From the NCBI GenBank assembly GCA_041916575.1, contig JAYRZI010000002.1, positions 21,117 to 85,116 on the forward strand: a stretch of DNA of 64,000 nucleotides. Reading direction: 5' to 3'. Made by a program: the position numbers and the translations under genes. The stretch is from Haliangiales bacterium (GTDB lineage Bacteria > Myxococcota_A > Polyangia > Haliangiales > Haliangiaceae). The notes below the pieces were generated by a model. That model worked only from the letters and a program-made list of their open reading frames with translations. It searched no databases and was not told the origin of the DNA. Numbering within the stretch: position 1 is the stretch's first letter; each line of letters begins with the position of its first letter. Shown here piece by piece: positions 2,576-21,796 of the stretch.

Positions 2576-3538
2576 ATGAAGCCCATGCAGTGGCTGAACT
2601 ATCACCACCTCTATTACTTCTCCATGATCGTGCAGGAGGGCGGGGTGGCTGCGGCGGCGCGCAAGCTGCGGCTCACTCACTCGACGCTCAGCGCGCAGCT
2701 GCGCGCGCTCGAAGCGCACCTCGGCGCGCCGCTTTTCGAGCGCCGCGGCAAGCGCCTGGTGCTCACCGCCTTCGGAGAAGAGGCCGCGGGCTACGCCGCA
2801 GACATCTTCCGACTCGGACGTGAACTCGGCGACGTCGCGCGCGGACGCAGCGGCTCCACTCGCCAGGCTCTGCGCGTGGGGGTGGCGCCTGGGATCCCAA
2901 AGGCCCTGGCAGCCCGCCTGCTGGGGCCCGCGCTGGACGAGCCCGGATTCGCGCTCGAGGTCCGCCACGCCGAGATCGTGCGACTGCTCGAGACGCTGGC
3001 GGCAGGAAGGCTGCACGTAGTGCTCACCAACGACGTCCCCACGCTCGCCCATGGAACGAAGCTGCACACCCACGCGCTCGGCGAGAACGAGGTACTGCTA
3101 TTCGCGAGCCGCCCCCTCGCACGGAGAGCCAAAGCGGAATACCCGCGCAGCCTGGAGAAGGTGCCGCTGCTACTGCCACCAGTCGGCGCGCCCCTACGTC
3201 GCCGGCTCGATGCCTGGCTCGCCAAGCACAAAGTGGCCGCCCGCGCCCTGGTGGAAGTCGACGACGCCGGCCTCCTGCGCGCCCTGGGCGCCGCCGGCCG
3301 CGGCGTGTTCCCCGTCCGCTCCGCGCTCCGCACCGAGATGGAAGAACTCCACGGCCTGACATTGGTCGGCCACTGCGAAGACGTACAAGAACCAACCTTC
3401 GCCGTCACCACCGAACGCCGCCTCCGACACCCCGGCGTGGCCGCCATCATCGAAGGCGCCCGAACCGCACTCGCCCCCCAAAAACACGGACCTCGCTCTC
3501 CGCCGAAAAACAAACACTCGATCTCCAAAACTAAATAG
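2576..3538 (+). CDS. LysR-family transcriptional regulator
   Basis: N-terminal HTH MKPMQWLNYHHLYYFSMIVQEGGVAAAARKLRLTHSTLSAQLRALE, followed by a LysR substrate-binding domain of typical length. Divergent from the usp gene, the usual LysR arrangement. Confidence 0.85.
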   Translation: MKPMQWLNYHHLYYFSMIVQEGGVAAAARKLRLTHSTLSAQLRALEAHLGAPLFERRGKRLVLTAFGEEAAGYAADIFRLGRELGDVARGRSGSTRQALRVGVAPGIPKALAARLLGPALDEPGFALEVRHAEIVRLLETLAAGRLHVVLTNDVPTLAHGTKLHTHALGENEVLLFASRPLARRAKAEYPRSLEKVPLLLPPVGAPLRRRLDAWLAKHKVAARALVEVDDAGLLRALGAAGRGVFPVRSALRTEMEELHGLTLVGHCEDVQEPTFAVTTERRLRHPGVAAIIEGARTALAPQKHGPRSPPKNKHSISKTK

Positions 3539-4322: not shown

Positions 4323-5144
4323 TTGCCACTTCCCTTCGTTCACTCGCCAGTCCAAAGTGAGACCATGAGCAGGGGAGGGACCCATACTCCATCGCGCCGC
4401 GCCAGCCGCGCTACCCAGCCAGCGCAGCTCACCCTGGACAGCGCGCGCAAACCCAGCGGACGCGGCGGCTGGCGTCCGGGCGCCGGACGCCCCCGCGGCC
4501 GCCGAAACGCACAGACTTGCAGCCACACCGCTCGCGCCCGCTTTTCCTCGCGCGCCCCCGCCCATATCACCCTGCGCATCGCTGCAGATGTGCCCTCGCT
4601 ACGCCAGAGCGCCGCCGTGGCCCTGGTGCGCACCACCCTAGCCGCCAGCCACACCGAGACCTTCCTCATCCTCGAGTTCAACGTGCTCTCGAACCACATC
4701 CACCTTCTCATCGAGGCGGATGACCAGACCGCGCTGACCCAGGGCATGCGCGCCCTGAACGTGCGCCTGGCCCGGCGCCTCAACCGCCACTTCACCCGCC
4801 GCGGACCCGTGCTCGCCGAGCGCTACCACGCCCGCCGCCTGGCCACCCCGCGCGAAGTCCGCAACGTCCTGCGCTACGTGCTGCTAAACGCCCGCCACCA
4901 CGCCGCCCAGCGCGGCCAGCGCCTGGCCCGCGGCTGGCTCGACCCCGCATCCAGCGCCGCCTGGTTCGACGGCTGGAGCCACCCAGAACACGCAGATCGC
5001 AGCGCCTACTGGATCGTGCAGCTCCAGCGCATCCCGCGCCCAACGCGCGCGCCCCGCACCTGGCTCTGCGCCATCGGCTGGCGCCGCCACGGCCTGCTCG
5101 CGATCGATGACATCCCCGGCGACGTCCCCAGCAACCCTCCGTGA
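4323..5144 (+). CDS. REP-associated tyrosine transposase (RAYT; IS200/IS605-like TnpA_REP, HUH endonuclease superfamily). The real start is possibly the Met at 4365.
   Basis: HUH motif NHIHLLIEADD and Tyr-containing motif RYHARRLATPREVRNVLRYVLLNARHH parallel the E. coli TnpA_REP motifs HMHCIW and RFWEHAIRNTKDYRHHVDYIYINPVKH. The gene is flanked on both sides by REP-like repeats in inverted orientation. An AT-rich putative promoter with a small palindrome CAGACTGTGAGTCTG lies just upstream. Confidence 0.75.
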   Translation: MPLPFVHSPVQSETMSRGGTHTPSRRASRATQPAQLTLDSARKPSGRGGWRPGAGRPRGRRNAQTCSHTARARFSSRAPAHITLRIAADVPSLRQSAAVALVRTTLAASHTETFLILEFNVLSNHIHLLIEADDQTALTQGMRALNVRLARRLNRHFTRRGPVLAERYHARRLATPREVRNVLRYVLLNARHHAAQRGQRLARGWLDPASSAAWFDGWSHPEHADRSAYWIVQLQRIPRPTRAPRTWLCAIGWRRHGLLAIDDIPGDVPSNPP

Positions 5145-7629: not shown

Positions 7630-9390
7630 TTAGTCGGTCAGGGTCAGGCTGTGGTCTCCGCTGCGCAGCACAGTCGCGCCGGCGTCGGTGGCGATGGTGA
7701 GCCCCAGGCCCGCGGCCAGGGTCTCGTGCATCGGCGGGCCAAAGCGCGGTCGACTGTACATGGCCAGATCTTCGCCGGTCAGCGCTGGGCCCGGCGCGCG
7801 GCGCAGACGCTCGTTGAGCTTGGTCTGCTCGCGGCCGACCAGGCGCAGCGCGCGCCGCTCGAGCGCAAAGGCCTCGGCGGCGACGGCGGCGAGCTCGGCG
7901 ACCAGCGGTGCGGCCGGCAGCCTGTCAGGCACGGCGCGCGCCAGCCATTCGGCCAAGCGGCGCGCGCCCTCTGCTTGCCCCGCGGGATCGAGGCGGAGCG
8001 CCTCGTCGAGCTCGGCCACCTCGATCTTGCCGGCCAGCCCTTCCGCGGCGCGGCCGAACAACCAGCGGCTGGAGCCCTGCTCGACCGCATAGGCCTCGAG
8101 CAGCGGGTGGGTCTCGCGCAGGAGCGGATAGTGCTGGCCGTCGATGGGCGCCTCGAGCCGCTCGCGCAGCGCGCCGGTGACGCCGGCGCCGACGAAGGCG
8201 CGCTCCAGCCGCAGGTGCAAGAGCCCCTGCGAGGCGCCGAGGAAGCGCACCGCAGCCTCGATGCGCTGGCCCAAGAGGCCGTAGTCGATGGCGGCCTCCA
8301 CATCGCCCAGGCGCTGGCTCACCGATGGCTCCACCTGGATCGGCGCGGCCACCTCCCCGGTGAGCACGCGCAAGTACTCATCGATGAGCGCCGGCGGGCC
8401 GGCGCATACGCCGTGGTTGCCGTGATACACGGAGTAGTGGTCGGCGTAGTCGGCGACGATCTGCGCGCTGACCGGGGTGTGGCAGCCGACGCCCTCGGCA
8501 GCGGCGTGCAGCATGTCGGTGGTGACCAGCCGCACGCCATCGACCAGGCGGAACATGGCGGATAGGCCATTGTCGAGCTGGCCGTTGGGCGAGGGATTCT
8601 CGCCGCGCACCATCACGTAACCCACCGAGGCCAGCATGCACACCGCCAGGAAGTGCAGCTCGCCGGAGCGCAGCGCGGCCGGGTCGCGCGGTGGCAGGCG
8701 CTCGAACAGCGCCACCCGGAACTGCTCGGTCAAGGACAGCAGCTCGGGCCAGGCCTTGGCCATGAGCTTGAGCGCGGTGACGTTCATCGGCAGCTCGTCT
8801 TGGAAGCGGCTGCCGGGGTAGTTGCACACCCGGCGCTGGGTGGGCAGATCCAAGAACAGGGTGCGTGGGATGACGTTGTTCTCGCCGACCTGCCGGCCAT
8901 CGGTGTCCATCGCCGGGTGCGCGACCCTGTAGATGGGCACCAGCACCTCGAGGTTGGCCAGGTCGAACGGGCGGCCGAACGCCTCCTCGGTGATGGCCGG
9001 ACAGCGGTTGTCGTGCGCGCTGAAGGTGCGCGGCTCGCGGTCCACGGGCGCCAGCCCCAGCCGTAGCGGGAAGCTCGCGTTCACATCGGCCGGCTCCTCG
9101 GAGTAGCGCTTGAGCACGCGCTGATCGAGGAGCGCCTGAAGCAGCTCGCGGATCTTCTCCCACTCGTGCGGTGCCGCGTTCGACCAGGACCGGGCCTCAT
9201 CGGCGCGGAAGCGCTCGAGCTCGAGCAGCTTCTCTCCCACGGGCGCCAGATCAGGCTCGTCGAAGATGAGCTCGACCTCGCCGTAGAAGAGGTGGAGGAC
9301 GTCCTGGCCCTCTTCATTCTTGAAGCGAGTGTGGGTCAGGCGTCGCCGCTTGGGGATGCAAAGGACCTCGCTCGGTTGTAGTTCCTCCAT
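7630..9390 (-). CDS. Hypothetical protein, 586 aa, with no recognisable family. Contains a His/Cys-rich patch GVGCHTPVSAQIVADYADHYSVYHGNHGVCAG.
   Basis: Protein-like diverse composition, whereas the overlapping + strand ORF 7033..8565 is antisense-like. Sits between the outer-membrane factor gene (38-bp gap) and the kinase gene. Confidence 0.6.
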   Translation of the reverse strand: MEELQPSEVLCIPKRRRLTHTRFKNEEGQDVLHLFYGEVELIFDEPDLAPVGEKLLELERFRADEARSWSNAAPHEWEKIRELLQALLDQRVLKRYSEEPADVNASFPLRLGLAPVDREPRTFSAHDNRCPAITEEAFGRPFDLANLEVLVPIYRVAHPAMDTDGRQVGENNVIPRTLFLDLPTQRRVCNYPGSRFQDELPMNVTALKLMAKAWPELLSLTEQFRVALFERLPPRDPAALRSGELHFLAVCMLASVGYVMVRGENPSPNGQLDNGLSAMFRLVDGVRLVTTDMLHAAAEGVGCHTPVSAQIVADYADHYSVYHGNHGVCAGPPALIDEYLRVLTGEVAAPIQVEPSVSQRLGDVEAAIDYGLLGQRIEAAVRFLGASQGLLHLRLERAFVGAGVTGALRERLEAPIDGQHYPLLRETHPLLEAYAVEQGSSRWLFGRAAEGLAGKIEVAELDEALRLDPAGQAEGARRLAEWLARAVPDRLPAAPLVAELAAVAAEAFALERRALRLVGREQTKLNERLRRAPGPALTGEDLAMYSRPRFGPPMHETLAAGLGLTIATDAGATVLRSGDHSLTLTD

Positions 9391-10916: not shown

Positions 10917-13049
10917 TCACGGGTGGCTGACGACCACGATGGAGGGCGCGTGCTCGAGCACGCAGCGCACGGCCACGCGCATGGTCTCGGGGTCGAGCGA
11001 GGCAAAGCTCTCATCGAGGATGACCAGCTCCACGCCCTGCAGCAGCGTGCGCGCGATGTAGAGCCGGCTCTTCTCGCCATGCGAGAGCTGCCAGCCGCTC
11101 TCGCCGACCAGCTCGTCGAGTCCAGCCGGCATCTTCTTGACCAGCTCGCCGAGGCCTAGCTCGTTGCACAAGACGCGCGCCTTCTCGCGCTGGGCCAGCG
11201 AGGTTGGCCACTCGCGCCCGAGCAGCAGGTTGTAGGCAAAGCTGCCGGCCAAGACGTGGTTCTCGTGGAACTGCGGCGCGGCGGTGACTCGCCGCCGCCA
11301 GCCCGACGAGCCAAAGGTGGCCCTATCGAGCCCGCGCAAGAGCAGCACGCCGGCCTCCGGGGTGCGCAGCCCGGTCAGCAGCGAGACCAAGGTAGACTTG
11401 CCGCCGCCCGAGGGGCCCTCGAGCAGGATGCGATCACCGGCGCCGATCTGGAACGTGCAGTTCTCGAGCACCGGCCGGGTCCGCGCCTGGTGCCGGAAGG
11501 TCAGGCCGCGCGCTTCGATCAACGTGCCCGCGGTGGTGGCGCCATCGCTCGCGGGCTGCGCCGGCAGGCCGGCCTCCATCTCGAGCGGCACCTTGGATTC
11601 GAGCTCGGGCCGCACCACCGCCCGCAAGAGGTCGCGGATCTGCTCGAACGAGGTGGCGGCCAGCGAGATCTGCTGGAAGAAGACCGAGATCTCGTCGAAG
11701 GCGCGCAGCGCCAGCAGGATGCCACCGACGGAGACCGCCAGCGCACTGGCCGGCGCCGCGCCGCTGGCGAAGGCCGGCAGCAGGGTCAAGAGCGCGAGCA
11801 CCAGCCAGCCGCCAGGCAGCACCGAGGCCAAGTACATGGTGCGCAGGTCCATGGCGCGCGAGGTCTCGCTGTAGGAGGCCAGGCGGCGATCTTCGCCATC
11901 GTGCCAGCGCTCGAGCGGGAGCTGCGCCAGCCGGGTGCGATGGCCGAGCATGCGCTCGAGCAGGTCGTGGGTGATGTCGATGCGGGCGCCCGACCAGCGC
12001 CGCTGCATCGAGTAATGGCGCCGGGTGAGCACCACGGCAACGACCATCCACATGGCGAGCGCGCCGACGTGCAGCCAGCCACCAGCGCCCAGCGACAGGA
12101 TGACGGCGGCCAGCCCGAGATCGACGACGGAGAGCACCGCCAAGAGCGCGCCGCCGAGGGCGAGCTGCTCGACCACCTCCGACTCGGCGACTCGGCCGAA
12201 GTGGCGGCCGATGCCGTCGAGGCGGATCTCGTCGGGGGTGAGCTTGAGGATGCCGGCGAGGAGCTGCTGCTTGAGCAGGGTGCCGATGCGGATGGCGAAC
12301 ACCCCCTGCCACCACACCTCGAGCAGCCGCAGCGGGATGGCGCAGGCGATCACCGCGAGCCAGCCCATGAACCAGCCGCTGTCCAGGTGCGCCTCGAGCG
12401 CGGCCCGGCCCAAGAGCCAGAACGAGGCCGCGAGCACCAGGGAGAGCAAGAGGTGGTTGACCAGGATGCCGCCGACGAGCGCGGGCATGCCGCCGAGCAA
12501 GGTGGTGGCGCGCGCGGTGCGCTGCGGCCGCAGGATCCAGCAGGTGCGAAGCTCGTCTTGGCCCAGCCGCTGCAGCAGGAGCTTGCCGCGCGCCTTGGCG
12601 CGGGCGCGCTCGGACATGGCCACGCTCGACAGGAGCTGATCCAGCTCGGCGGCGACGCCGGCCTGGCGCTCCTGGCGCACCAGCGCGAGCACGCGCGCCT
12701 CTTGCATCCACACGGTCTTGGAGTCGCGCGTCAGCAGGCGGACCTTGCCACCGCGAGCGCCGAGCAGCACCAGGTAGTACGGCCGGCCGTTGTGGCGGAG
12801 CTGGAGCAGCGCCGGCGCCGAGCGCGCGACGAAGTCGGGCAGCTCGCGATACAGCGGCGTCACCGGCTCGAGCTCCACGCCGAGCCGGCCGGCGAGCGCG
12901 AACATCCACACCCGGCTGGGCTCGATCTCCGGATCGTGGCTGCCGAGCTCATCGGGATGGGCGCCGTAGCCGGCGCGCTGAGCGAGCTGCTCGAGCGCAT
13001 CCGCCAGGCGATCGACCGGCCACAGCAAGGGCGCGAAGTCGTGGGTCAT
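10917..13049 (-). CDS. ABC transporter (TMD plus ATPase) with an N-terminal C39-like domain lacking the catalytic Cys. This is the peptidase-dead partner of NHLM-type bacteriocin exporters.
   Basis: Walker A LLEGPSGGGKST, ABC signature LSHGEKSRL, Walker B LVILDESFASLD. The N-terminal ~150 aa are C39-like but have no Cys-containing motif. Start trimmed to MTHDF, which makes an ATGA overlap with the upstream gene stop. Confidence 0.75.
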   Translation of the reverse strand: MTHDFAPLLWPVDRLADALEQLAQRAGYGAHPDELGSHDPEIEPSRVWMFALAGRLGVELEPVTPLYRELPDFVARSAPALLQLRHNGRPYYLVLLGARGGKVRLLTRDSKTVWMQEARVLALVRQERQAGVAAELDQLLSSVAMSERARAKARGKLLLQRLGQDELRTCWILRPQRTARATTLLGGMPALVGGILVNHLLLSLVLAASFWLLGRAALEAHLDSGWFMGWLAVIACAIPLRLLEVWWQGVFAIRIGTLLKQQLLAGILKLTPDEIRLDGIGRHFGRVAESEVVEQLALGGALLAVLSVVDLGLAAVILSLGAGGWLHVGALAMWMVVAVVLTRRHYSMQRRWSGARIDITHDLLERMLGHRTRLAQLPLERWHDGEDRRLASYSETSRAMDLRTMYLASVLPGGWLVLALLTLLPAFASGAAPASALAVSVGGILLALRAFDEISVFFQQISLAATSFEQIRDLLRAVVRPELESKVPLEMEAGLPAQPASDGATTAGTLIEARGLTFRHQARTRPVLENCTFQIGAGDRILLEGPSGGGKSTLVSLLTGLRTPEAGVLLLRGLDRATFGSSGWRRRVTAAPQFHENHVLAGSFAYNLLLGREWPTSLAQREKARVLCNELGLGELVKKMPAGLDELVGESGWQLSHGEKSRLYIARTLLQGVELVILDESFASLDPETMRVAVRCVLEHAPSIVVVSHP

Positions 13050-15772
13050 GGCCGCACCTTCTCCTCGAGGTGCCCGTTGGCCAGCCACCAATGCCGCCAC
13101 TTGCCGCTGCTCCACAGCAGGCGGTGGTTGTCCTCATCGGCGCGCAGCAGCTCGGCGTAGCGCGACTTGTCGTTGGCCAAGAGCTCCTTGGGCGGGCCGT
13201 TCTCCACGATCCGCCCACCCTCGATCACCAGCACCCGGTCGAACTCCTTGGTGTGCGAGACATCGTGGGTCACGCACAAGAGCGTGATGTCTGCCCACAG
13301 GCGCCGCGACTCGGCCAAGAGGCGGGCGCGCCGCTCGCGATCGAGCCCGCGAAACGGCTCGTCGAGCAGCGCCAGGCGCACGCGCGAGCGCAGCATGGCG
13401 CGCGCCAGGCGCACGCGCTGGCCCTGGCCGCCGGAGACCAGTCCGCCGCCTTCGCCGAGCGGGGTCTGCAAGCCGGCGGGCAGCGCCTCGAGGATATCGA
13501 GCATCTCGGCGCCCTTGAGCGTGGCATCGAGCGCCCAGCCGCCGCTGGCGTCGTTGCCGTAGCGCAGGTTGTCGAGCAGGCTCTGGTTCCAGATGCTCAC
13601 CTCTGGATCCACCCACGCGGTGGTGCGGCGCAGGCGCTCGATGGCCGGCTGATCCAGCAGCTCCCCATCGACGCGGATCTCGCCGCGCGCCGGGCGCAGC
13701 CAGCCCAGCAGCAGCCCGACCAGCGTGGACTTGCCGGCGCCAGAGACCCCGACGATGGCCACATGCTCGCCGGCGGCGAGGTTGAGCGAGACCTTGTCGA
13801 GGATGGTGTGGCCGCCGCCCTTGACGCGCACGCGCTCCATCGAGATCGCGACGCCGGCCGTGGCCACAGCCGGCCCTGGCGCGGGCTTGCTCGGCTCGTC
13901 GGGGGGCTCGGCGGCAGGGCTGGACTTGAGCGCCAGCGCTTGCGCCAACTTGGGCGCTGGCTCGATCTCTCCGACGATATCGAGCAGGCGGCGCACCCGG
14001 TTCATCGCGCTGGGGAAGGTGCGGGTCAAGACCAGGAGGCGCTGGCCCAGGATGGGGAAGCGCAGCGCCCAGAACACCACCAGCAAGATCAGCGAGGCGC
14101 GCTCGCTCGACTGGAGGTACGAGTACACGAGGTACATGACCAGGCCGTAGCTCACGGTCATGAGCACGCCTTCGAAGCCGATGGTGAGCCGCTGTAGCCA
14201 CAGCCGGGCCTTGGTCCACTCGACGAGCAGCGCCTCCTGGCCGCGGCGCAGCGAGCGCTCGGCGCCGTGGATGCGGATCGGCGTGAGCCCCAAGAGCGCG
14301 CTCAAGATGAACGCGGACAGCGCGCCGCCGTGGGTCTGCACGCGCATGTCGGGCTCGAAGAACAGGCCCTGCGCGAACAGCGGCAAGAGCAGGGTGGCGG
14401 CGGTGAGCGCCAGCACGATGCCCCAGGCCGAGGGCGCGGCCCACAAGAGCGCGGCGGCGGTGGAGAGCACCTCCAGCGACAGCGTGATGCCCTGCGCCAC
14501 CAGGATGGGCAGCGTGCGCATGGCCTGGATGTTGTGGCAGCGCGAGGCCATGTCGGAGGCCAGGCGGCTCTGGAAGTAGCGGTCTTCCGTCTTGGGGAGC
14601 TTCTCGAAATAGGCTTTCCGGAGGCGCACCTCCAGGCGACGACCGATACCGAGCAGGCCCAAGGAGATCGGGATCTGGATGAGCAACAAGGTCAACGCCA
14701 GGCCGGCCAGGACCAGCATGCCGACGCCGCGTTGCTCGACCGTGCCCAGATCGCGGCCGAGATCGAGCACGGCGCGCAGCATCAGCGCCTGCAAGAGCCG
14801 CCCGAAGGTGGTGAGCACGAGCCCGGCCACGATCAAGAGCGGCAACATGCGGGGATCCTCGGCGAGCAGGCGCAAGAGGGTGCGCGCCGTGCTGGGCTGC
14901 GCTGCCACCAGCGCTTGCGCCAGATCGGTGGCCATCGGCGGCGGCGCAGCCTCCCCGGCGGGCGCCTTCTTCCAGTCGCGGAACCGCAGCAGCACCGCGC
15001 CGGTGAGCAGCAGCTCGCCTTCTTCGTCGGGGTTGGGGCGCACCGACCAGTAGGAGGCCGGGATCGGCACGGTCCCGGCGCGATCCTTCTCCACCATCGA
15101 CTGCGCCAGCTCGACCGCTGCGCGGCCGCGGCCGATCGCGCCCGCGCGCACCATCGCCTCCACTGCGCGCGTCGCTGCGTCGAGCGCGGCGATCGATCGA
15201 TAGCTTGGATCTTCGAGAGCACCCGCCACCAGCGCGGCGGCGTCACCAGCGCCGAGGTTGGCGAGGCGCTTCTGGAACGCCCGCACGGCTTCGTCGGAGC
15301 CCGCCCATTCTCGCCAGGCGTCGGCCGGCGCCGAGGTGGTGTGCTGGTAGAACGTGCTCATCACCGTGTCGATGCGGGTCCAGTGCCGGCCGGCGGCCGG
15401 ATCCATGACCTGCACGAACGGGCCCAGTCGCCGCCACAGCACCACGAAGTGCGGTCGTCCACCGGCGGTCAACGTGACGATGATGGCCGGCAGCGCGTGC
15501 GCCTCGGAGAGGAACACGTGGTCCATCGGCAGCATGACCTGCTCGGCATCGAGCCCGAGCTGGTTGGCCACTTCCTCGAGCGTGACGATCGAGGTGCCGT
15601 CGACATCGGTCTGGCAGGCCTCGCGCAGCACGCGGTAGTTGAGCTCGAGGCCCATGCCCGCGAACACGCTCTTGATCGCGGCCGGGCCGCAATCGGTGGC
15701 CGAGATCTGGATCACCTCGGGGATGATCGTGCGGCGGGTGTGCCGGGCAGGCCGGGAGGCAGAGTCGCTCAT
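13046..15772 (-). CDS. Peptidase-containing ABC transporter (PCAT) with an N-terminal C39 double-glycine peptidase domain, a long linker, a 6-TM domain and an ABC ATPase
   Basis: C39 catalytic Cys motif VIQISATDCGPAAIKSVFAGMG and His motif RPHFVVLW. ABC motifs GVSGAGKSTL, LSGGQGQRVRLARA and LALLDEPFRGLD. Start trimmed to MSDSASRP; the ORF upstream extension overlaps hlyD. Confidence 0.85.
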   Translation of the reverse strand: MSDSASRPARHTRRTIIPEVIQISATDCGPAAIKSVFAGMGLELNYRVLREACQTDVDGTSIVTLEEVANQLGLDAEQVMLPMDHVFLSEAHALPAIIVTLTAGGRPHFVVLWRRLGPFVQVMDPAAGRHWTRIDTVMSTFYQHTTSAPADAWREWAGSDEAVRAFQKRLANLGAGDAAALVAGALEDPSYRSIAALDAATRAVEAMVRAGAIGRGRAAVELAQSMVEKDRAGTVPIPASYWSVRPNPDEEGELLLTGAVLLRFRDWKKAPAGEAAPPPMATDLAQALVAAQPSTARTLLRLLAEDPRMLPLLIVAGLVLTTFGRLLQALMLRAVLDLGRDLGTVEQRGVGMLVLAGLALTLLLIQIPISLGLLGIGRRLEVRLRKAYFEKLPKTEDRYFQSRLASDMASRCHNIQAMRTLPILVAQGITLSLEVLSTAAALLWAAPSAWGIVLALTAATLLLPLFAQGLFFEPDMRVQTHGGALSAFILSALLGLTPIRIHGAERSLRRGQEALLVEWTKARLWLQRLTIGFEGVLMTVSYGLVMYLVYSYLQSSERASLILLVVFWALRFPILGQRLLVLTRTFPSAMNRVRRLLDIVGEIEPAPKLAQALALKSSPAAEPPDEPSKPAPGPAVATAGVAISMERVRVKGGGHTILDKVSLNLAAGEHVAIVGVSGAGKSTLVGLLLGWLRPARGEIRVDGELLDQPAIERLRRTTAWVDPEVSIWNQSLLDNLRYGNDASGGWALDATLKGAEMLDILEALPAGLQTPLGEGGGLVSGGQGQRVRLARAMLRSRVRLALLDEPFRGLDRERRARLLAESRRLWADITLLCVTHDVSHTKEFDRVLVIEGGRIVENGPPKELLANDKSRYAELLRADEDNHRLLWSSGKWRHWWLANGHLEEKVRP

Positions 15773-15780
15773 GGCACGGC

Positions 15781-17004
15781 TCAGCGGGCTTCGGCCTGGG
15801 GCTGGAACACGCGCTGCCCCGGTGGTGGCTCGGTGGACTCGTCCCATTCGCCGATCGCGCGCATCAACAGCGCGACAGGCGACGCGCGCGCCACCTCCAC
15901 CTCCACGGTGGCGGTGAGCCCATGCCGGAGCTGAATTCGCGGATCGGAGGGAGGCAATAGCTCCAGCTCGACTCGCACGGTACCGGGAATGGCCTCTGGG
16001 GTTGCGGTGATGCCTGGCTCGGTGCCGACGCGGGTCACGGTGGCTGGTACCGTGCCGTAGAGGGTCCAGGGGTAGCCATCGAGCTTGAGCTGCGCGGGCT
16101 GGCCAGGCTGGATGAGGCCCACCATCTCCTTGGGGAAACGAGCGCGCACGCGAACCTTGGCATCCGCCGCCAGGATGGTGCCCAGCCGCTGGCCCTCGGC
16201 GATGAAGGCGCCCGCGCCAAGCTCGGCGACGTCGACGAGCCGACCGGAGGCTGGTGCGCGATAGTGCTTGCGCTCGATGGCGTACTCGAGCCGCTCGATC
16301 GCCACCCGCAGCTCGCGCGCCTGGCCTTCGATCCGGAGCTCCTCACGCTTGAGCGCCAGGAGCTGTGCGCCCAGCGCCTGCCGCCGAACGGCTTGCTCGC
16401 GCTGGAGCCGCACCGTGGCCAAGCTCTGTGCTCGGCTCGCGGAATCCAGGGTGTCGGCTTCAGTGAGCCGCTCGAGCTTCTCCAGCTCGGAGATCGAGCC
16501 GGTTGGGCTCTTCTGCGCCAGCTCGGCACGCTCCTTGGCGAGCCGCTGGCGAGGAGCCAGCTCTTCCTGCCGCTCGACGGACTCGCGCAGCGCGATCGCG
16601 TCCGCCTGGCTGCTGGCTGCCAGCTCTGCCTTCTTGTTGGCGATCTGATCCATCACCACCGTTAGCTCTTGCTCGAGCCCGGCGAGCGTGGCGTTGCTCT
16701 GCTCGAGCTCGAGTCGCTCACTCTTCGTGTCGAACTCGATGAGGAGATCACCCTTCTTTACGTCCTCATCGAGCTTGAGCATGGAGCGCACCACGCGGCC
16801 CGCTCCTGGCGGCTCCAGCCGATGGATGGCGTTATGCGGCTCGATGCGGCCTTGTGAGCTAACCTTCATCACCGGGACTTGTGCGCCGAAGGCCCATACG
16901 GTGAGCCCGCCCAGCGCCAGGACGACGAGCGCCACCAGCAGGACCTGGGTTCGTGACTCGTATCCGTTCAAGGACCGAAGCGTTCGCTCGAATGGATATG
17001 CCAT
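15781..17004 (-). CDS. HlyD-family secretion (membrane fusion) protein
   Basis: 407 aa. N-terminal TM helix, long coiled coil, and beta/lipoyl-like C-terminal part. Architecture of type-I-secretion membrane-fusion proteins. First gene of the operon. Confidence 0.85.
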   Translation of the reverse strand: MAYPFERTLRSLNGYESRTQVLLVALVVLALGGLTVWAFGAQVPVMKVSSQGRIEPHNAIHRLEPPGAGRVVRSMLKLDEDVKKGDLLIEFDTKSERLELEQSNATLAGLEQELTVVMDQIANKKAELAASSQADAIALRESVERQEELAPRQRLAKERAELAQKSPTGSISELEKLERLTEADTLDSASRAQSLATVRLQREQAVRRQALGAQLLALKREELRIEGQARELRVAIERLEYAIERKHYRAPASGRLVDVAELGAGAFIAEGQRLGTILAADAKVRVRARFPKEMVGLIQPGQPAQLKLDGYPWTLYGTVPATVTRVGTEPGITATPEAIPGTVRVELELLPPSDPRIQLRHGLTATVEVEVARASPVALLMRAIGEWDESTEPPPGQRVFQPQAEAR

Positions 17005-17026
17005 TGGTACACGAATAATAGACGGC

Positions 17027-17044
17027 GGGAGGGCAAGCCCTCCC
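17027..17044 (-). other. Perfect hairpin GGGAGGGC-AA-GCCCTCCC located 22 bp upstream of the hlyD start codon. A second similar hairpin GGGGAGGGTCAGGCCCTCCC lies at 17428-17447.
   Basis: Inverted repeat seen directly in the sequence. Confidence 0.4.
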
Positions 17045-17052
17045 GTCAGCGT

Positions 17053-17101
17053 CCGAGAAAATGGTGTGGCTAGAGCCGAATCTTGCGAGCCGGCTCTAGC
17101 C
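17053..17101 (-). terminator. Rho-independent-terminator-like element after micro-ORF 1. An 11-bp perfect stem GGCTAGAGCCG/CGGCTCTAGCC with a 12-nt loop, followed on the transcribed (minus) strand by ACACCAUUUUCUCGG.
   Basis: Inverted repeat and downstream U-rich tract read from the sequence. Its orientation is correct only for a minus-strand transcript. Confidence 0.5.
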
Positions 17102-17112
17102 AGGTCGCTGAG

Positions 17113-17160
17113 TTAGCGAGCCTTCGCAGCGCCAGCGCGAACGTGCACTTTGATCTTCAT
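17113..17160 (-). CDS. Micro-ORF 1, 15 aa: MKIKVHVRAGAAKAR. Candidate leader or precursor peptide.
   Basis: ATG preceded by a textbook Shine-Dalgarno, AAGGGAGGTGAGTAG-ATG, with a TAA stop. Followed immediately by the terminator hairpin. The whole module is duplicated about 400 bp upstream. Confidence 0.4.
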   Translation of the reverse strand: MKIKVHVRAGAAKAR

Positions 17161-17456
17161 CTACTCACCTCCCTTCGTTCGCAATCCTAGGCAGAGACAA
17201 TGTGCGTAGTAAACAGAAATGTGTCTCATGTCAGGATGCCAGTAGAGAATCACAGGCGTTAGAGAAGTGTGTTGGAACACAAAACTCGTCGCAGGCAGAT
17301 GCTTCGCATCTTCGTCGATGGTTCACGACGAGGGGAAGCTCGAGGAGCACTGAGGCCGGAGTAAACGGTTGCTCAGGCAGTGTCTATCCCTCAAGCCAGC
17401 ACTCATGGGTGCATGAGAGAGTGGACGGGGGAGGGTCAGGCCCTCCCAACATTCGT

Positions 17457-17505
17457 CCGAGAAAATGGTGTGGCTAGAGCTGAACCTTGCGATTCAGCTC
17501 TAGCC
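17457..17505 (-). terminator. Second copy of the terminator-like hairpin (GGCTAGAGCTGAA...TTCAGCTCTAGCC plus U-tract) after micro-ORF 2
   Basis: Same architecture as 17053..17101, with compensatory base changes in the stem (GCCG/CGGC becomes GCTGAA/TTCAGC). The changes keep pairing, which argues for selection on structure. Confidence 0.5.
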
Positions 17506-17516
17506 AGGTCGCTAAA

Positions 17517-17561
17517 TTAGCGAGCCTTCGCGCCAGCGCGAACGTGCACTTTGATCTTCAT
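17517..17561 (-). CDS. Micro-ORF 2, 14 aa: MKIKVHVRAGAKAR
   Basis: Same SD context GAAAGGAGGTGAGTAG-ATG. Differs from copy 1 by one codon (loss of one Ala). Confidence 0.4.
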   Translation of the reverse strand: MKIKVHVRAGAKAR

Positions 17562-18108
17562 CTACTCACCTCCTTTCACCTTCACTCTAATCGGAGACGA
17601 TGTGAGTAGTAAATAGAAAATGTGTCTCATGAGATGGCAATAGTTCTCGGTGTCGCATGCGTTAGAGAGGTGTGATGGAATACAGAACTCGCATCAGGGG
17701 GAAGCTTCGCTTCTTCGTCGGTGTTTCTCGACGAGAGCAGCCACACCAGCGGGGAATTGCGGTGCGATGCATGCCGTTCGAGTCATTGGTCATAAGTGCA
17801 CGAGATCGTGTGATTGACTCGTAATCCGGAGTCGAGGGGGGATCTCCTTCTGTGCATTTTTTTGGCAGGGCGAGTTCGCCTCCACGTTGCTCACGAGCAG
17901 CTCCAAGTCGATGGAAGCCAGGCGTGCGTGATGCGTTCGGTGCCATCGAGGCCACGTCCGTCTCGCCGGGGCAGGGGCGTGCAGGGCGGAAAGCTCGAGG
18001 CCGCCGGTTGACCCTGCGCTTTGGTCCTGCGTACGTTCGGCGCGCGCCGCTTGCAGTGGCGACGGTCTGAGCCCGCGTTCGTTGCGGGGAAGTGGAGGAA
18101 TCGAAGTC

Positions 18109-20202
18109 ATGAAGAAGGATGTCATCGCCAACGTGGTGTTCGTGCCGCTCTTGCTGGTCGCTGCCTGCGGAGGCGCCGCGCGCGAGCCGGTGAGCACGCC
18201 GACGGCTGCTCCCGTGGTGCCCCAGCCCGCGGCGATCGTCGCGAGCGCTCCGTCGCAGCGAGGCATCGAGGCAGGAGATCTCAATCGCGCCATCGATCCG
18301 TGCGTGGACTTCTACGAGTACGCCACCGGTGCCTGGCGGGCGCAGAACCCGATCCCCGAGGGCAAGCCGCGGTGGGGGCGCCGCGCGGTGCAGCGCGTGG
18401 CCATCGCCAAGAAGGTCACCGCGCTCATCCAAGAGGTAGCAGCGCGCGCAGACTGGCCCACCGGCAGCGCCGAGCAGCTCGTCGGCGATCATTACGCCGC
18501 GTGCATGGACGAGGCTGCGGCGGAGGCGGCGGGGCTGGCGCCGCTGGCGCCGCTCTTGGCCGAGCTCGATGCGGCCAAGACGAGCGGCGACGTGCAACGC
18601 TCGATCCGTCAGCTCCACGCACTGGGCATCTCTGCGGCCTTCGGCGTGACCGCCGCCTTCGATCAGCGCGAGCCGATGCTGTTTCAGCTAAACATCGCGG
18701 CTGCCGGGCTCGGGCTGCCGGAGCCCTCGATGTACTCCAAGCCGGACGCGGCCGAGCTGCGCGGCAAGTACAAGCAGCACCTCGCCCGGTTGCTGGTGCT
18801 GGCGGGGACCGCCGAGAAGGCCGCGCTGGCCGCCGCCGACGGCGTGATCGCTCTCGAGAAGAAGCTGGCCGAAGCGTCGCTCGACCCAGCGGTGGCGCAA
18901 GATCCCGCGGCCACCATCAACCGCAAGAGCTTCGCCGAGCTGGCGGCGCTCTCTCCTCGCTTCGATTGGGACAAGTACTTCGCGGAGGCCAAGCTGCCGC
19001 GGCACGCGGTGAACGTGGCCGAGGCCAAGCTCTTGCAGCAGGTGAACAAGGAGCTGCAGTCGACGCCGATCTCGGTATGGAAGGCGTACCTCAAGGTGCA
19101 GCTCTTGTCGGTGGCCGCGCCTTGGCTGTCCAAGGCGTTCGCCGATGAGTCGTTCGCGTTCCAGGGCAAGGTCCTAGGCGGCGCTAGTGAGCCGACGCCG
19201 CGCGCCGCGCGCTGTGCGCAGTCCACCGAGGCGCTCTATGGTGAACCGCTCGGCAAGCTGTTCGTGGAGCGGACCTTTCCCGATTCGGCCAAGGCCAAGG
19301 CGCGCGCGATCTCCGACAGCCTGCTCGCGGTGCTGCGCGAGAACGTCGCCAGCCTGCCGTGGATGGCGGCTGCCACCAAGCAGAAGGCGATCGAGAAGAT
19401 CGCCACCATGAGCGTGCAGCTCGGCTATCCGGACACCTGGAAGGATACCTCCGGGCTCCTCATCCGGCGCGATGCGCCGTGGGCCAACTTCGCGCAGGCG
19501 CGCAAGCATGGCGTCGATGATCTCCGGCGACAGATGGGGCGGCCGACCGATCGCGCGCAGTGGGGCCTGCCGCCGTTCTCCTCGGCGGCGTACCTCGAGG
19601 CGCAGCTCAATGAGCTGGTGCTTCCGGCGGGCTTCCTGCAGCTACCGTACTTCGATGCGGGCGCCACCGACGCCATGAACTACGGCGCGCTCGGTGCCGG
19701 GCTCGCCCACGACATGACCCACGCCTACGACGCGACCGGTGCAGTGCTCGATGCTCAGGGCCGGGCGCAGACCTGGTGGACCGAGGCCGATCGCAAGGCC
19801 TTCGATGAGCGCACGCAGTGCATCATCGAGCAATATGATGGCTACGCGATCGAGCCCGGGGTGTTTCATCAGGGCAAGCAGGTGCTGGCCGAGGCGCTCG
19901 CCGACCAGGCCGGTCTGACCTTCGCGCTGGCGGCGCTCGATCGCTCGATGGCCACCAGCCCGGTGCCCACCGTCGACGGCTTCACGCCCCACCAGCAGTT
20001 CTTCCTGGCCTGGGCCCAGTTCCGCGGCGAGGAGGTGCGCCTCGAGGCACAGCGGCAGCTCGTCAAGGCAGGGCCGCATCCGATGCCGAAGTTTCGGGTG
20101 AACGGCCCCTTGGCGAATATCCCGCAGTTCGCCGAGGCGTTCTCGTGCAAGGCCGGCGCGCCGATGGTGCGCCCGCCCGAGAAGCGCTGCGCCGTCTGGT
20201 GA
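18109..20202 (+). CDS. M13-family metallopeptidase (neprilysin / PepO / endothelin-converting-enzyme-like) lipoprotein
   Basis: Lipoprotein signal MKKDVIANVVFVPLLLVAACGG. M13 motifs NAMNYGALGAGLAHDMTHAYD and GEALADQAG (the GENIADxGG equivalent). The zinc motif reads HDMTH, not the canonical HExxH. Confidence 0.85.
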   Translation: MKKDVIANVVFVPLLLVAACGGAAREPVSTPTAAPVVPQPAAIVASAPSQRGIEAGDLNRAIDPCVDFYEYATGAWRAQNPIPEGKPRWGRRAVQRVAIAKKVTALIQEVAARADWPTGSAEQLVGDHYAACMDEAAAEAAGLAPLAPLLAELDAAKTSGDVQRSIRQLHALGISAAFGVTAAFDQREPMLFQLNIAAAGLGLPEPSMYSKPDAAELRGKYKQHLARLLVLAGTAEKAALAAADGVIALEKKLAEASLDPAVAQDPAATINRKSFAELAALSPRFDWDKYFAEAKLPRHAVNVAEAKLLQQVNKELQSTPISVWKAYLKVQLLSVAAPWLSKAFADESFAFQGKVLGGASEPTPRAARCAQSTEALYGEPLGKLFVERTFPDSAKAKARAISDSLLAVLRENVASLPWMAAATKQKAIEKIATMSVQLGYPDTWKDTSGLLIRRDAPWANFAQARKHGVDDLRRQMGRPTDRAQWGLPPFSSAAYLEAQLNELVLPAGFLQLPYFDAGATDAMNYGALGAGLAHDMTHAYDATGAVLDAQGRAQTWWTEADRKAFDERTQCIIEQYDGYAIEPGVFHQGKQVLAEALADQAGLTFALAALDRSMATSPVPTVDGFTPHQQFFLAWAQFRGEEVRLEAQRQLVKAGPHPMPKFRVNGPLANIPQFAEAFSCKAGAPMVRPPEKRCAVW

Positions 20203-20380: not shown

Positions 20381-21796
<1,416 letters not shown>

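Follow-up and report, generated by a model that had tools for sequence, protein, structure and literature searches.

What two very short, tandemly repeated open reading frames are doing directly upstream of a peptide-export operon is the question raised by this locus in a Haliangiales bacterium. The window, that is the whole stretch of DNA analysed here, is 64,000 nucleotides long. The original prediction, made from its letters, had offered two answers: the frames could be genes for tiny basic peptides, in the arrangement that bacteriocin precursors have beside their transporters, or they could be duplicated leader-peptide attenuators controlling the export operon. Its assumption of a myxobacterial source was right.

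The export genes lie downstream of the modules on the minus strand and have the predicted content. The first encodes an hlyD-type membrane-fusion protein of 407 aa (15781..17004) and, in the sequence, lacks a Shine-Dalgarno (SD) site of its own. [quoted passage not shown] The C39 domain of the PCAT spans residues 45-166, contains Q47, C53, H133 and D149, and is followed by an insert of ~170 aa before the membrane domain. The N-terminus of ABC2 is weakly similar to the C-terminal half of C39, with Tyr replacing the catalytic His. Across loci the catalytic Q, C and H were found in 24/24 and the D in 22/23 (one Asn; one alignment was too short), which bore out the assignment as a C39-type PCAT; by its residues, the C39 domain is catalytically intact. 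The hydrophobic-knot residues A55/I59 of PCAT1 (PMC6959990) aligned without gaps to I87/E91 of the window PCAT. Position 91 was E or D in 22/23 loci, and position 92 was E in 21/23. No modification, immunity or receptor gene was consistently adjacent to the modules; in one sub-group of loci a divergent M13 peptidase gene adjoins.

Upstream of hlyD, at 17005-17790 on the minus strand, are two head-to-tail units of ~403 bp each (period 401-404 bp), and their alignment has a column identity of 84%. Unit 1 (17400..17790), distal from hlyD, contains upstream blocks, a micro-ORF and two hairpins, and unit 2 (17005..17399), proximal to hlyD, has the same layout. The duplication was thus as first described, but its given extent of 17027-17640 was too short, as the repeat reaches ~17790. 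The low-GC island was likewise borne out (local GC 0.49-0.58 vs 0.68-0.73 in the surroundings), as was the gap of 22 nt between the end of the last module and the hlyD ATG at 17004. Three conserved blocks of the units had 0 occurrences in dinucleotide-preserving shuffles of the window, and an upstream block, TTCCATCACACCTCTCTAACGC (17659..17680 in unit 1, 17256-17277 in unit 2), is kept in the closest relatives only. Decayed hlyD fragments, which are clear at L003, L015 and L019, gave only short, non-significant and roughly colinear matches inside the window units.

The units had been described as promoter, micro-ORF and terminator modules. This layout is real, but the labels promoter and terminator stay putative: a simple scan of the window gave no canonical sigma-70 promoter and no canonical intrinsic terminator on the minus strand. 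Read by eye, a putative promoter TTTACT-18 nt-TAGAGT (8/12 consensus matches) lies at 17584..17613 in unit 1, and TTTACT-18 nt-TAGGAT occupies the same position in unit 2 (17184-17213). Both fall below the threshold of the scan, so that the promoter is placed by position only; other loci have TTGCGG-17-TATAAA there.

Micro-ORF 1, encoding MKIKVHVRAGAKAR in 14 codons followed by TAA, lies at 17517..17561 (nhmmer E 2e-15), and micro-ORF 2, encoding MKIKVHVRAGAAKAR in 15 codons followed by TAA, at 17113..17160 (nhmmer E 4e-15), both on the minus strand. As predicted, each is preceded by an SD site, GGAGGTGAGTAG-ATG, and the two ORFs are identical in sequence save for one GCT codon. The SD of micro-ORF 1, GGAGGTGA, is at 17566..17573 (17165-17172 in unit 2). 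Its core, GG(A/G)GGTGA, stands 4-7 nt 5' of the start codon in most copies (it is degenerate in ~5/29) and is the sole conserved upstream element across the family. The 41 ORFs found in the family encode 37 distinct peptides, which are 13-19 aa long. Residues 1-10 are nearly invariant (MKIKx[HN][VL]R[AG]G), while the basic tail ending in K-x-R is hypervariable and differs even between array paralogues within one locus.

The codon statistics of loci L008-L020 are partly biased by the ORF pattern with which those loci were sought, and the analysis was therefore restricted to 21 ORFs from the 16 loci found through HlyD. Within this subset, positional entropy over codons 2-10 was 3.49/2.12/7.84 at codon positions 1/2/3, and pairwise codon differences were synonymous in 537 cases vs 370 non-synonymous. 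Length changes in the family are all in frame and leave the terminal K-x-R intact; the ORFs end in any of the three stop codons (TAA 22, TGA 12, TAG 7), and the one copy with a TTG start has an intact SD. Judged from these patterns of codon variation, the micro-ORF is a real conserved coding gene under protein-level selection. An NCBIfam scan of a single 27-aa variant returned nothing at E<=10. A supposed likeness to ribosomal protein bL35 at its N-terminus was dropped because a profile of 28 peptides searched against all PDB chains gave 0 matches at E<=10. A literature search on N-terminal octamer strings of the family found no paper, and literature on PCATs, myxobacteria or Kofleriaceae/Haliangium with small peptides held no description of such a system.

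Comparison with other genomes, suggested in the original prediction, found a micro-ORF upstream of the PCAT operon at 16/16 of the related HlyD-found loci, in 1-3 copies each and ~100-800 bp from the hlyD start. It was present even at a locus where HlyD identity is only 57%. A metagenome scan with HlyD gave only 9 loci, which made the survey smaller than planned. Searching 185,579 genomes with the ORF pattern, for which we estimate <0.1 chance matches, gave 13 matching stretches, 13/13 of them in Myxococcota and 12/13 beside hlyD-PCAT homologs. The remaining one, L015, is an orphan array of two intact micro-ORFs, whose attached hlyD 5' fragments lack the ATG and show frameshifts and truncation. 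Every copy of the repeat found lay beside this exporter or its remnants, contrary to what a generic scattered repeat would have given. In at least eight loci (L004/L017, L006, L007, L009, L014, L016, L018) the micro-ORF is on the opposite strand to hlyD and ends at a U-tract terminator of its own; at L004 and L007, whose gene calls were inspected, a convergent gene follows the micro-ORF. Across these genome sequences, the micro-ORF is strictly linked to one C39 exporter in a group of myxobacteria.

Each micro-ORF is followed by two hairpins. Hairpin 1 of unit 1 (17471..17506, minus strand) has a perfect 14-bp stem and a loop with CGCAAG, and that of unit 2 (17067..17102, minus strand) a perfect 12-bp stem; the stems are perfect, as described. 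The predicted compensatory changes between the two copies held for one full pair (T-A to C-G), the other change being A-U to G.U, and the strong covariation evidence came from other genomes. In the family alignment, hairpin 1 has 14 pairs with 95% of cells paired and double changes in 13 pairs, values reached by 0/500 shuffles, and slid controls paired at 24-54%; on the sense strand G.U cells outnumber A.C cells. From this covariation, hairpin 1 is a real RNA structure. Because it starts 10-20 nt 3' of the stop codon, it lies clear of the ORF; it dominates the folds, and a non-exhaustive search saw no conserved alternative pairing. The U-tract said to follow it exists as UUUU, but begins 7 nt past the stem, and at divergent loci a separate canonical U-tract terminator lies 3' of hairpin 1. 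The second GC hairpin, GGACG..GGGAGGG..CCCTCCC..CGTCC in unit 1 (17423..17458, minus strand), is also present in unit 2 (17021..17054, minus strand, ~17 nt 5' of the hlyD ATG), as predicted from sequence and seen in the fold. It is conserved in sequence at same-strand loci with little covariation (double changes in 3/6 pairs); hairpin 2 was not retained as a proven structure, the covariation energy term being not in its favor.

Given a conserved coding gene linked to an active C39 exporter, we consider it somewhat better than even (a probability of roughly 0.55) that the modules are miniature genes and their peptides double-glycine-type cargo of the adjacent PCAT. The peptide-gene half of the original prediction is to that extent supported, as far as sequence goes, by selection, linkage, multiple copies and orphan survival, the ORFs of L015 that are intact beside a dead hlyD fragment being counted in its favor. 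The arrangement resembles MccV/CvaAB-TolC, Gram-positive class II bacteriocins and ComC/ComAB, where a small and often multi-copy gene lies beside an active-C39 ABC transporter and a membrane-fusion protein, and here too a C39 ABC protein with Gln/Cys/His/Asp and a membrane-fusion protein adjoin the ORFs. The peptides share with double-glycine peptides a conserved N-terminus, a variable C-terminus, small residues at -2/-1 and Val or Leu at -4: [AG]-G was found at residues 9-10 in 35/37 distinct peptides (in the remaining two, AAGG or SA follows 1-2 residues later), and residue 7 (-4) was Val or Leu in 37/37. LahT150 requires a Val/Leu-type hydrophobic residue at -4 (PMC6363468).

They differ from double-glycine peptides in other respects. 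The Leu expected at -7 and -12 was not found, -7 being the invariant Lys4 and -12 being absent because the presumed signal, which is cationic, has 10 residues only. In LahT150 the change of Leu-7 to Lys abolished cleavage, and the minimal signal motif was 13 residues (PMC6363468). Where a signal of ~13-24 residues and a cargo of tens would be expected, the peptides have 10 and a presumed cargo of only 3-9, so that a normal signal by itself (15-18 residues in microcins) matches the entire pre-peptide (13-19 aa) in length. The exporter itself differs too, with an additional ABC subunit and an outer-membrane protein gene of its own. The exporter could also serve double-glycine substrates whose genes lie elsewhere in the genome, which counts against these peptides being its cargo.

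If the peptides are cargo, transcription from a weak sigma-70-like promoter and translation from the consensus SD of a short leader would yield a strongly basic peptide of 13-19 residues, and the covarying stem-loop past the stop codon would cap the short transcript. At same-strand loci, including the window, hlyD lacks both an SD and a clear promoter of its own and would probably be transcribed by read-through of the hairpins, which would leave the peptide mRNA far above the exporter mRNA, as for bacteriocin structural genes. The sequence M-K-I-K-x-[HN]-[VL]-R-[AG]-G would act as a miniature double-glycine-type export signal to which the C39 domain of the adjacent transporter would bind, in keeping with the known rules for positions -4 (Val/Leu) and -2/-1 ([AG]-G). 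Opposite the invariant Lys at -7 would lie Glu/Asp91, which stands in place of the hydrophobic Ile59 of PCAT1; from the alignment, Lys4 and Glu91 may form a charge pair in which the acidic residue compensates for the missing Leu at -7. Cleavage would fall after Gly10, and the cationic tail of 3-9 residues ending in K-x-R, or possibly the whole peptide, would leave through the PCAT/ABC2, HlyD and outer-membrane protein channel and act outside the cell as a signal or antimicrobial. More tentatively, and at less than even odds, these would be the shortest known PCAT substrates, with a 10-residue cationic signal read by a charge-swapped C39 groove and basic oligopeptides of 3-9 residues (KAR, AKAR, GPKAR) released as signals or weapons of Kofleriaceae/Haliangiales.

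The alternative that survives best, although we regard it as unlikely, is that the micro-ORF encodes a trans-acting intracellular micro-protein that is not itself exported; it might regulate the exporter, join it as an accessory subunit or bind another cell component. This would suit an ORF that is strictly co-inherited with the exporter yet can be divergently transcribed, and the conserved, amphipathic and strand-like KIKVHVR could dock onto a protein, possible partners being the insert of the PCAT and the degenerate C39-like N-terminus of ABC2. A partner-binding cofactor, however, would be expected to be single-copy and conserved over its full length, whereas here the tail is hypervariable and the copies multiply. 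The conservation of an active C39 also implies that some substrate is cleaved.

Less probable still is the second answer of the original prediction, in which ribosome stalling or termination on duplicated leader ORFs steers the hairpins and hence the transcription or translation of hlyD-PCAT. At same-strand loci the layout is that of the trpL and ermCL attenuators, in that a strong SD, a short ORF and then hairpins precede the operon. There the last ORF stop is at a fairly constant distance from the hlyD ATG (65-140 nt, mostly 110-120), the two hairpins lie between them, an hlyD promoter or SD is not evident, and the motif GATCACCCAATG is conserved along with hairpin 2. Two resemblances, which we take to bear on this alternative only, are those of the terminal K-x-R to the +x+ macrolide arrest motif and of VRAG(G)P to the SecM sequence GIRAGP. 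The same-strand arrangement, true of the window, failed at the opposite-strand loci, where ORFs divergent from hlyD with their own terminator argue against action in cis, and at the orphan array, where the ORFs outlived hlyD. Unlike in trpL or ermCL, the modules flip orientation and exist as orphans, hairpin 1 lies outside the ORF with no conserved alternative pairing seen, and the invariant part is the N-terminus, not the end nearest the peptidyl-transferase center; nor does attenuation need arrays of 2-3 copies with differing tails. That the repeat is a small non-coding RNA or generic intergenic element with an incidental ORF is very improbable: hairpin 1 covaries as RNA and the two window units fold better than shuffles (z = -5.2 and -3.2), but no Rfam family came near its gathering score (E-value mode, 16800-18200; two chance-level matches, both on the opposite strand), the hairpin sequence itself varies freely, third-position variation dominates, indels keep frame, stops are interchangeable, start codon (ATG/TTG) and SD are conserved, and the repeat stays with the exporter or its remnants.

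Other known systems offer partial parallels. The NHLP/Nif11 cassette (TIGR03794/TIGR03796/TIGR03797) likewise has HlyD, a C39-ABC and a peptidase-less ABC protein in one operon, and NHLP-type ABC models were the two best-scoring NCBIfam models for the PCAT; for HlyD and ABC2 other models scored higher, and the scores were far below the curated cut-offs (TIGR03794 60.1/156.2 bits, TIGR03796 187.1/853.3, TIGR03797 92.5/709.4). The known NHLP/Nif11 substrates are precursors of 70-100 aa, not peptides of 14 aa. Minimal RiPP precursors, which include MccA (7 aa) and crocagin CgnA, adjoin modifying enzymes (P450, MccB), whereas here only the exporter is conserved. Such precursors, the 5-aa biarylitide one with its 18-bp gene among them, demonstrate that genes of 5-20 codons can be functional, escape automatic annotation and occur in myxobacteria (PMC13417212, PMC12951456). 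PatS (13-17 aa) and HetC of Nostoc pair a very short ribosomal peptide, in a multicellular Gram-negative organism, with a suggested but unproven dependence on a C39-type exporter; the active part of PatS is a C-terminal oligopeptide, the substrate of HetC is not yet identified, and an 'atypical cleavage signal' has been discussed (PMC10986499). PatS differs in having no sequence similarity to these peptides and patS is not beside hetC, and HetC contains a cNMP-binding domain, with no membrane-fusion protein gene beside its own.

PCAT exporters are widespread in Gram-negative bacteria and many are without a known substrate, as the HetC literature notes (PMC10986499). Genome mining for microcins and double-glycine peptides presumes signals of at least 15 residues and proteins that can be called as genes. 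If the peptides described here are exported, searches for PCAT substrates would have a blind spot and annotation pipelines would miss a class of peptide secretion. They would also provide a natural case of altered leader-peptidase recognition, electrostatic in place of the hydrophobic knot, as well as a very small secretion tag for engineering. For the soil myxobacteria that carry the modules, which are poorly cultured, they would offer a testable entry to peptide signaling or antagonism.

The 1.1-kb minus-strand gap between an M13-peptidase (neprilysin/PepO-type) lipoprotein gene (18109-20202, plus strand, divergent from the array) and hlyD (minus strand, 407 aa, ATG at 17004) contains two head-to-tail units that repeat every 401-404 bp and are 84% identical. 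Repeat alignment placed unit 1, distal from hlyD, at ~17400-17790 and unit 2 at 17005-17399, both on the minus strand. Each unit carries, in order, two upstream conserved blocks, GGAGGTGAGTAG, ATG, a micro-ORF of 14 or 15 codons, a stem-loop and a second GC hairpin, and the two are nearly identical from the SD to just beyond the first hairpin. Micro-ORF 1, MKIKVHVRAGAKAR, lies at 17561-17517 and micro-ORF 2, MKIKVHVRAGAAKAR, at 17160-17113. Hairpin 1 has a perfect stem of 14 bp in unit 1 (17471-17506) and of 12 bp in unit 2 (17067-17102), and the GC-rich hairpin 2 follows at 17423-17458 and 17021-17054 (all minus strand). The original prediction of two repeated modules upstream of an exporter was borne out by this identity, by the zero occurrences of the conserved blocks in shuffled sequence and by a dip in GC (0.49-0.58 vs ~0.70 outside); its interval of 17027-17640 was too short, as the repeat reaches ~17790. 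A profile search found only two micro-ORF copies in the 64-kb window. A weak nhmmer match at 20669-20697 (minus strand, E=8e-4, 15 bits), inside the pyruvate kinase coding region, was taken as chance similarity.

HlyD has ~280 close relatives, the best 120 of which share 70-96% identity, and every match to which a source assigns a family is labelled Kofleriaceae. Sixteen loci were fetched through HlyD alone, without using the micro-ORF sequence, and all 16 carry one to three micro-ORFs ~100-800 bp from the hlyD start. Among them is a relative at only 57% HlyD identity, which encodes MKIKTKVKAGAKIR. We found 41 micro-ORFs in total; they specify 37 different peptides, 13-19 residues long, with the consensus M-K-I-K-x-[HN]-[VL]-R-[AG]-G-x(0-6)-K-x-R-x(0-3). 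Asp, Glu, Cys, Trp and Tyr occur in none of them except a 27-residue variant, MKIKTHVRGGPKARLVSSESSIRIPNF (locus L006:4145-4228, minus strand). With TTA at the expected stop-codon position, this variant has apparently lost its stop, either as a natural extension or through an assembly error.

Coding statistics were restricted to the HlyD-derived loci. Over codons 2-10, positional entropy was 3.49, 2.12 and 7.84 for codon positions 1, 2 and 3, and pairwise comparison gave 537 synonymous and 370 non-synonymous codon differences. Length changes are always in frame and leave the terminal K-x-R intact, all three stop codons (TAA, TGA and TAG) are in use, and one copy starts with TTG behind an intact SD, whose core is the only family-wide conservation 5' of the micro-ORF. 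On this sequence evidence we consider the micro-ORFs to be real micro-genes of a conserved coding family.

A strong stem-loop lies 10-20 nt past the stop codon of every micro-ORF. Across 26 aligned same-strand copies, 95% of the cells in the 14-pair hairpin 1 helix were paired, with double (compensatory) changes at 13 pairs; none of 500 shuffles matched the observed values, and shifted registers paired at 24-54%. The excess of G.U over A.C cells favours a structure formed by sense-strand RNA. For hairpin 2, the sequence is conserved but little covariation was seen. No Rfam family matched. The hairpin had been read as a U-tract terminator, but in the window it is not a canonical one, since its U-run begins 7 nt past the stem and a scan found no canonical promoter or terminator on the minus strand.

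Downstream of hlyD follow a C39 peptidase-containing ABC transporter (PCAT), a second ABC protein and an OEP/NodT outer-membrane protein. In alignment with PCAT1 and ComA, the C39 domain keeps Gln47, Cys53, His133 and Asp149. All 24 loci retain the Gln, Cys and His, and 22 of 23 the Asp (one is Asn; one alignment was too short), so a cleavable substrate would be expected. At its N-terminus (12580-13049, minus strand), the second ABC protein weakly resembles the C-terminal half of C39 (E=0.035) and has PYYLVL for PHFVVL, Tyr replacing the catalytic His, which suggests that this domain is C39-like but degenerate and that the transporter is a heterodimer in which only one of two peptidases is active. 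With scores well short of the NCBIfam cut-offs, the exporter proteins are not members of the NHLP export cassette equivalogs. The PCAT is unusually long (908-933 aa) because of a ~170-residue insert between C39 and the first transmembrane helix (residues ~167-337; 14840-15350, minus strand), for which no Pfam or PDB sequence match was found. A 586-aa ORF with high GC3 and no Pfam match (7630-9390, minus strand) lies directly downstream of the outer-membrane protein gene, an IS200-like Y1 transposase gene (4323-5144, plus strand) lies ~4 kb beyond the operon end, and a LysR regulator gene is at 2576-3538. An M13 metallopeptidase gene is likewise divergently adjacent to the array in other same-strand loci (L003, L005, L008, L010, L013, L021, L023 and L024) and was not detected in loci of divergent layout, some of them with only short flanks. 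Exported peptides could be processed or degraded by this enzyme, or its adjacency could be mere clade synteny.

A degenerate pattern of the SD plus the first nine codons was run against 185,579 species at one genome per species, with <0.1 chance matches expected by our own estimate. The scan returned 13 stretches, every one from a Myxococcota MAG (under the label Kofleriaceae, Haliangiales, 'Polyangiales' or 'Myxococcales'), and hlyD-PCAT homologues adjoin 12 of them. The thirteenth, L015:1900-2760, from the same MAG as locus L008 (JBGQCL01), is an orphan: its array has two complete modules and no exporter downstream. Each module is followed by a decayed, truncated hlyD 5' piece, one of which shows ATG changed to GTG, a frameshifting 1-nt deletion and a 9-nt tandem expansion to five copies of GCCTGGGTC; over the first 11 codons and the SD core GGGGGTGAA, the array still matches L008 exactly. 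Remnants of the hlyD 5' end also lie within the arrays of L003 and L019, which show that the arrays grow by duplicating the module together with the hlyD start. Such remnants are faint at best in the window's own units. Small spacer hairpins were seen between the units (17700-17740 and 17300-17340, minus strand): TCGTCG..CGACGA is present in both, and GAAGC-GAA-GCTTC in one unit is GATGC-GAA-GCATC in the other, a compensatory change. These hairpins may be what is left of duplicated hlyD 5' sequence.

We propose a cleavage site after Gly10. This cut would put Gly at -1, Ala or Gly at -2 and Val or Leu at -4, all in agreement with the requirements of LahT150 and PCAT1. In contrast to the substrates of those enzymes, the peptides have an invariant Lys4 at -7 and a 10-residue leader with no -12 position. 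LahT150 did not cleave L-7K or L-12 mutants, and the shortest leader segment tested and cleaved was 13 residues (PMC6363468). In PCAT1, A55 and I59 form a 'hydrophobic knot' with Leu-7 and Leu-12 (PMC6959990); here they correspond to Ile87 and Glu91, in a segment that aligns without gaps and has TD..GT and QLG as anchors. Of 23 loci, 22 have Glu or Asp at position 91 and 21 have Glu at position 92. Co-adaptation would predict such an acidic C39 groove facing a cationic leader, a pairing inferred here from the alignment. We slightly favour (probability about 0.55) the peptides being miniature double-glycine-type cargo of the PCAT. That they instead act within the cell, as trans-acting micro-proteins, seems to us doubtful.

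A role as cis attenuators of the export operon is less likely still. The loci fall into two layouts, same-strand ('VRAG' type, including the window) and divergent. In the former, the last micro-ORF stop lies 65-140 nt from the hlyD ATG, mostly 110-120 nt, with L013 (219 nt) as the sole exception. In the latter (MKIK[ST][HN][VL]RGGP...; L004/L017, L006, L007, L009, L014, L016 and L018), the micro-ORF is on the strand opposite hlyD, and after it come hairpin 1 and a canonical U-tract terminator distinct from that hairpin. In L004 and L007, the divergent loci whose neighbouring genes were called, a convergent gene comes next. This layout and the orphan array together rule out an obligatory attenuator role. 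What may stand of the 'attenuating terminator' idea is read-through. No hlyD SD was found in any locus examined, nor a convincing promoter in the same-strand layout, where the conserved hairpin 2 and, just ahead of the start codon, the motif GATCACCCAATG (17005-17020, minus strand) lie 5' of hlyD, so same-strand hlyD is probably expressed through read-through from the micro-gene promoters. Read-through from a structural-gene promoter into export genes is common for bacteriocin structural genes. In two of three divergent loci examined (L004 and L018), a TATA-like hexamer ~13-17 nt before the hlyD ATG suggests a near-leaderless mRNA. An imperfect palindrome, CTTCTT-GTTTATAAA-GAAGAAG, lies ~20-45 nt upstream of each micro-ORF in L008, L010, L015 and L019, overlies a putative -10 element and is a possible operator; the window's own clade lacks it and has the blocks TTCCAnCACACnTCTCTAACGC and CATGAGACACATTT instead.

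That the modules are non-coding RNA or a generic repeat is highly improbable. The pattern matches stand at the exporter or with hlyD remnants and are not scattered through unrelated contexts, the outcome that the original prediction had named as its own refutation.

Four N-terminal octamer strings of the peptides had no match in a literature text search, and keyword searches found no description of such a micro-ORF/exporter system. In function, the closest parallels are class II microcins with CvaAB-TolC, the PatS/HetC relationship, itself unproven (PMC10986499), and minimal RiPP precursors such as biarylitides (PMC13417212, PMC12951456). The micro-ORF family is clade-restricted and previously undescribed, and its members have a functional tie to a type I secretion system of the PCAT type.
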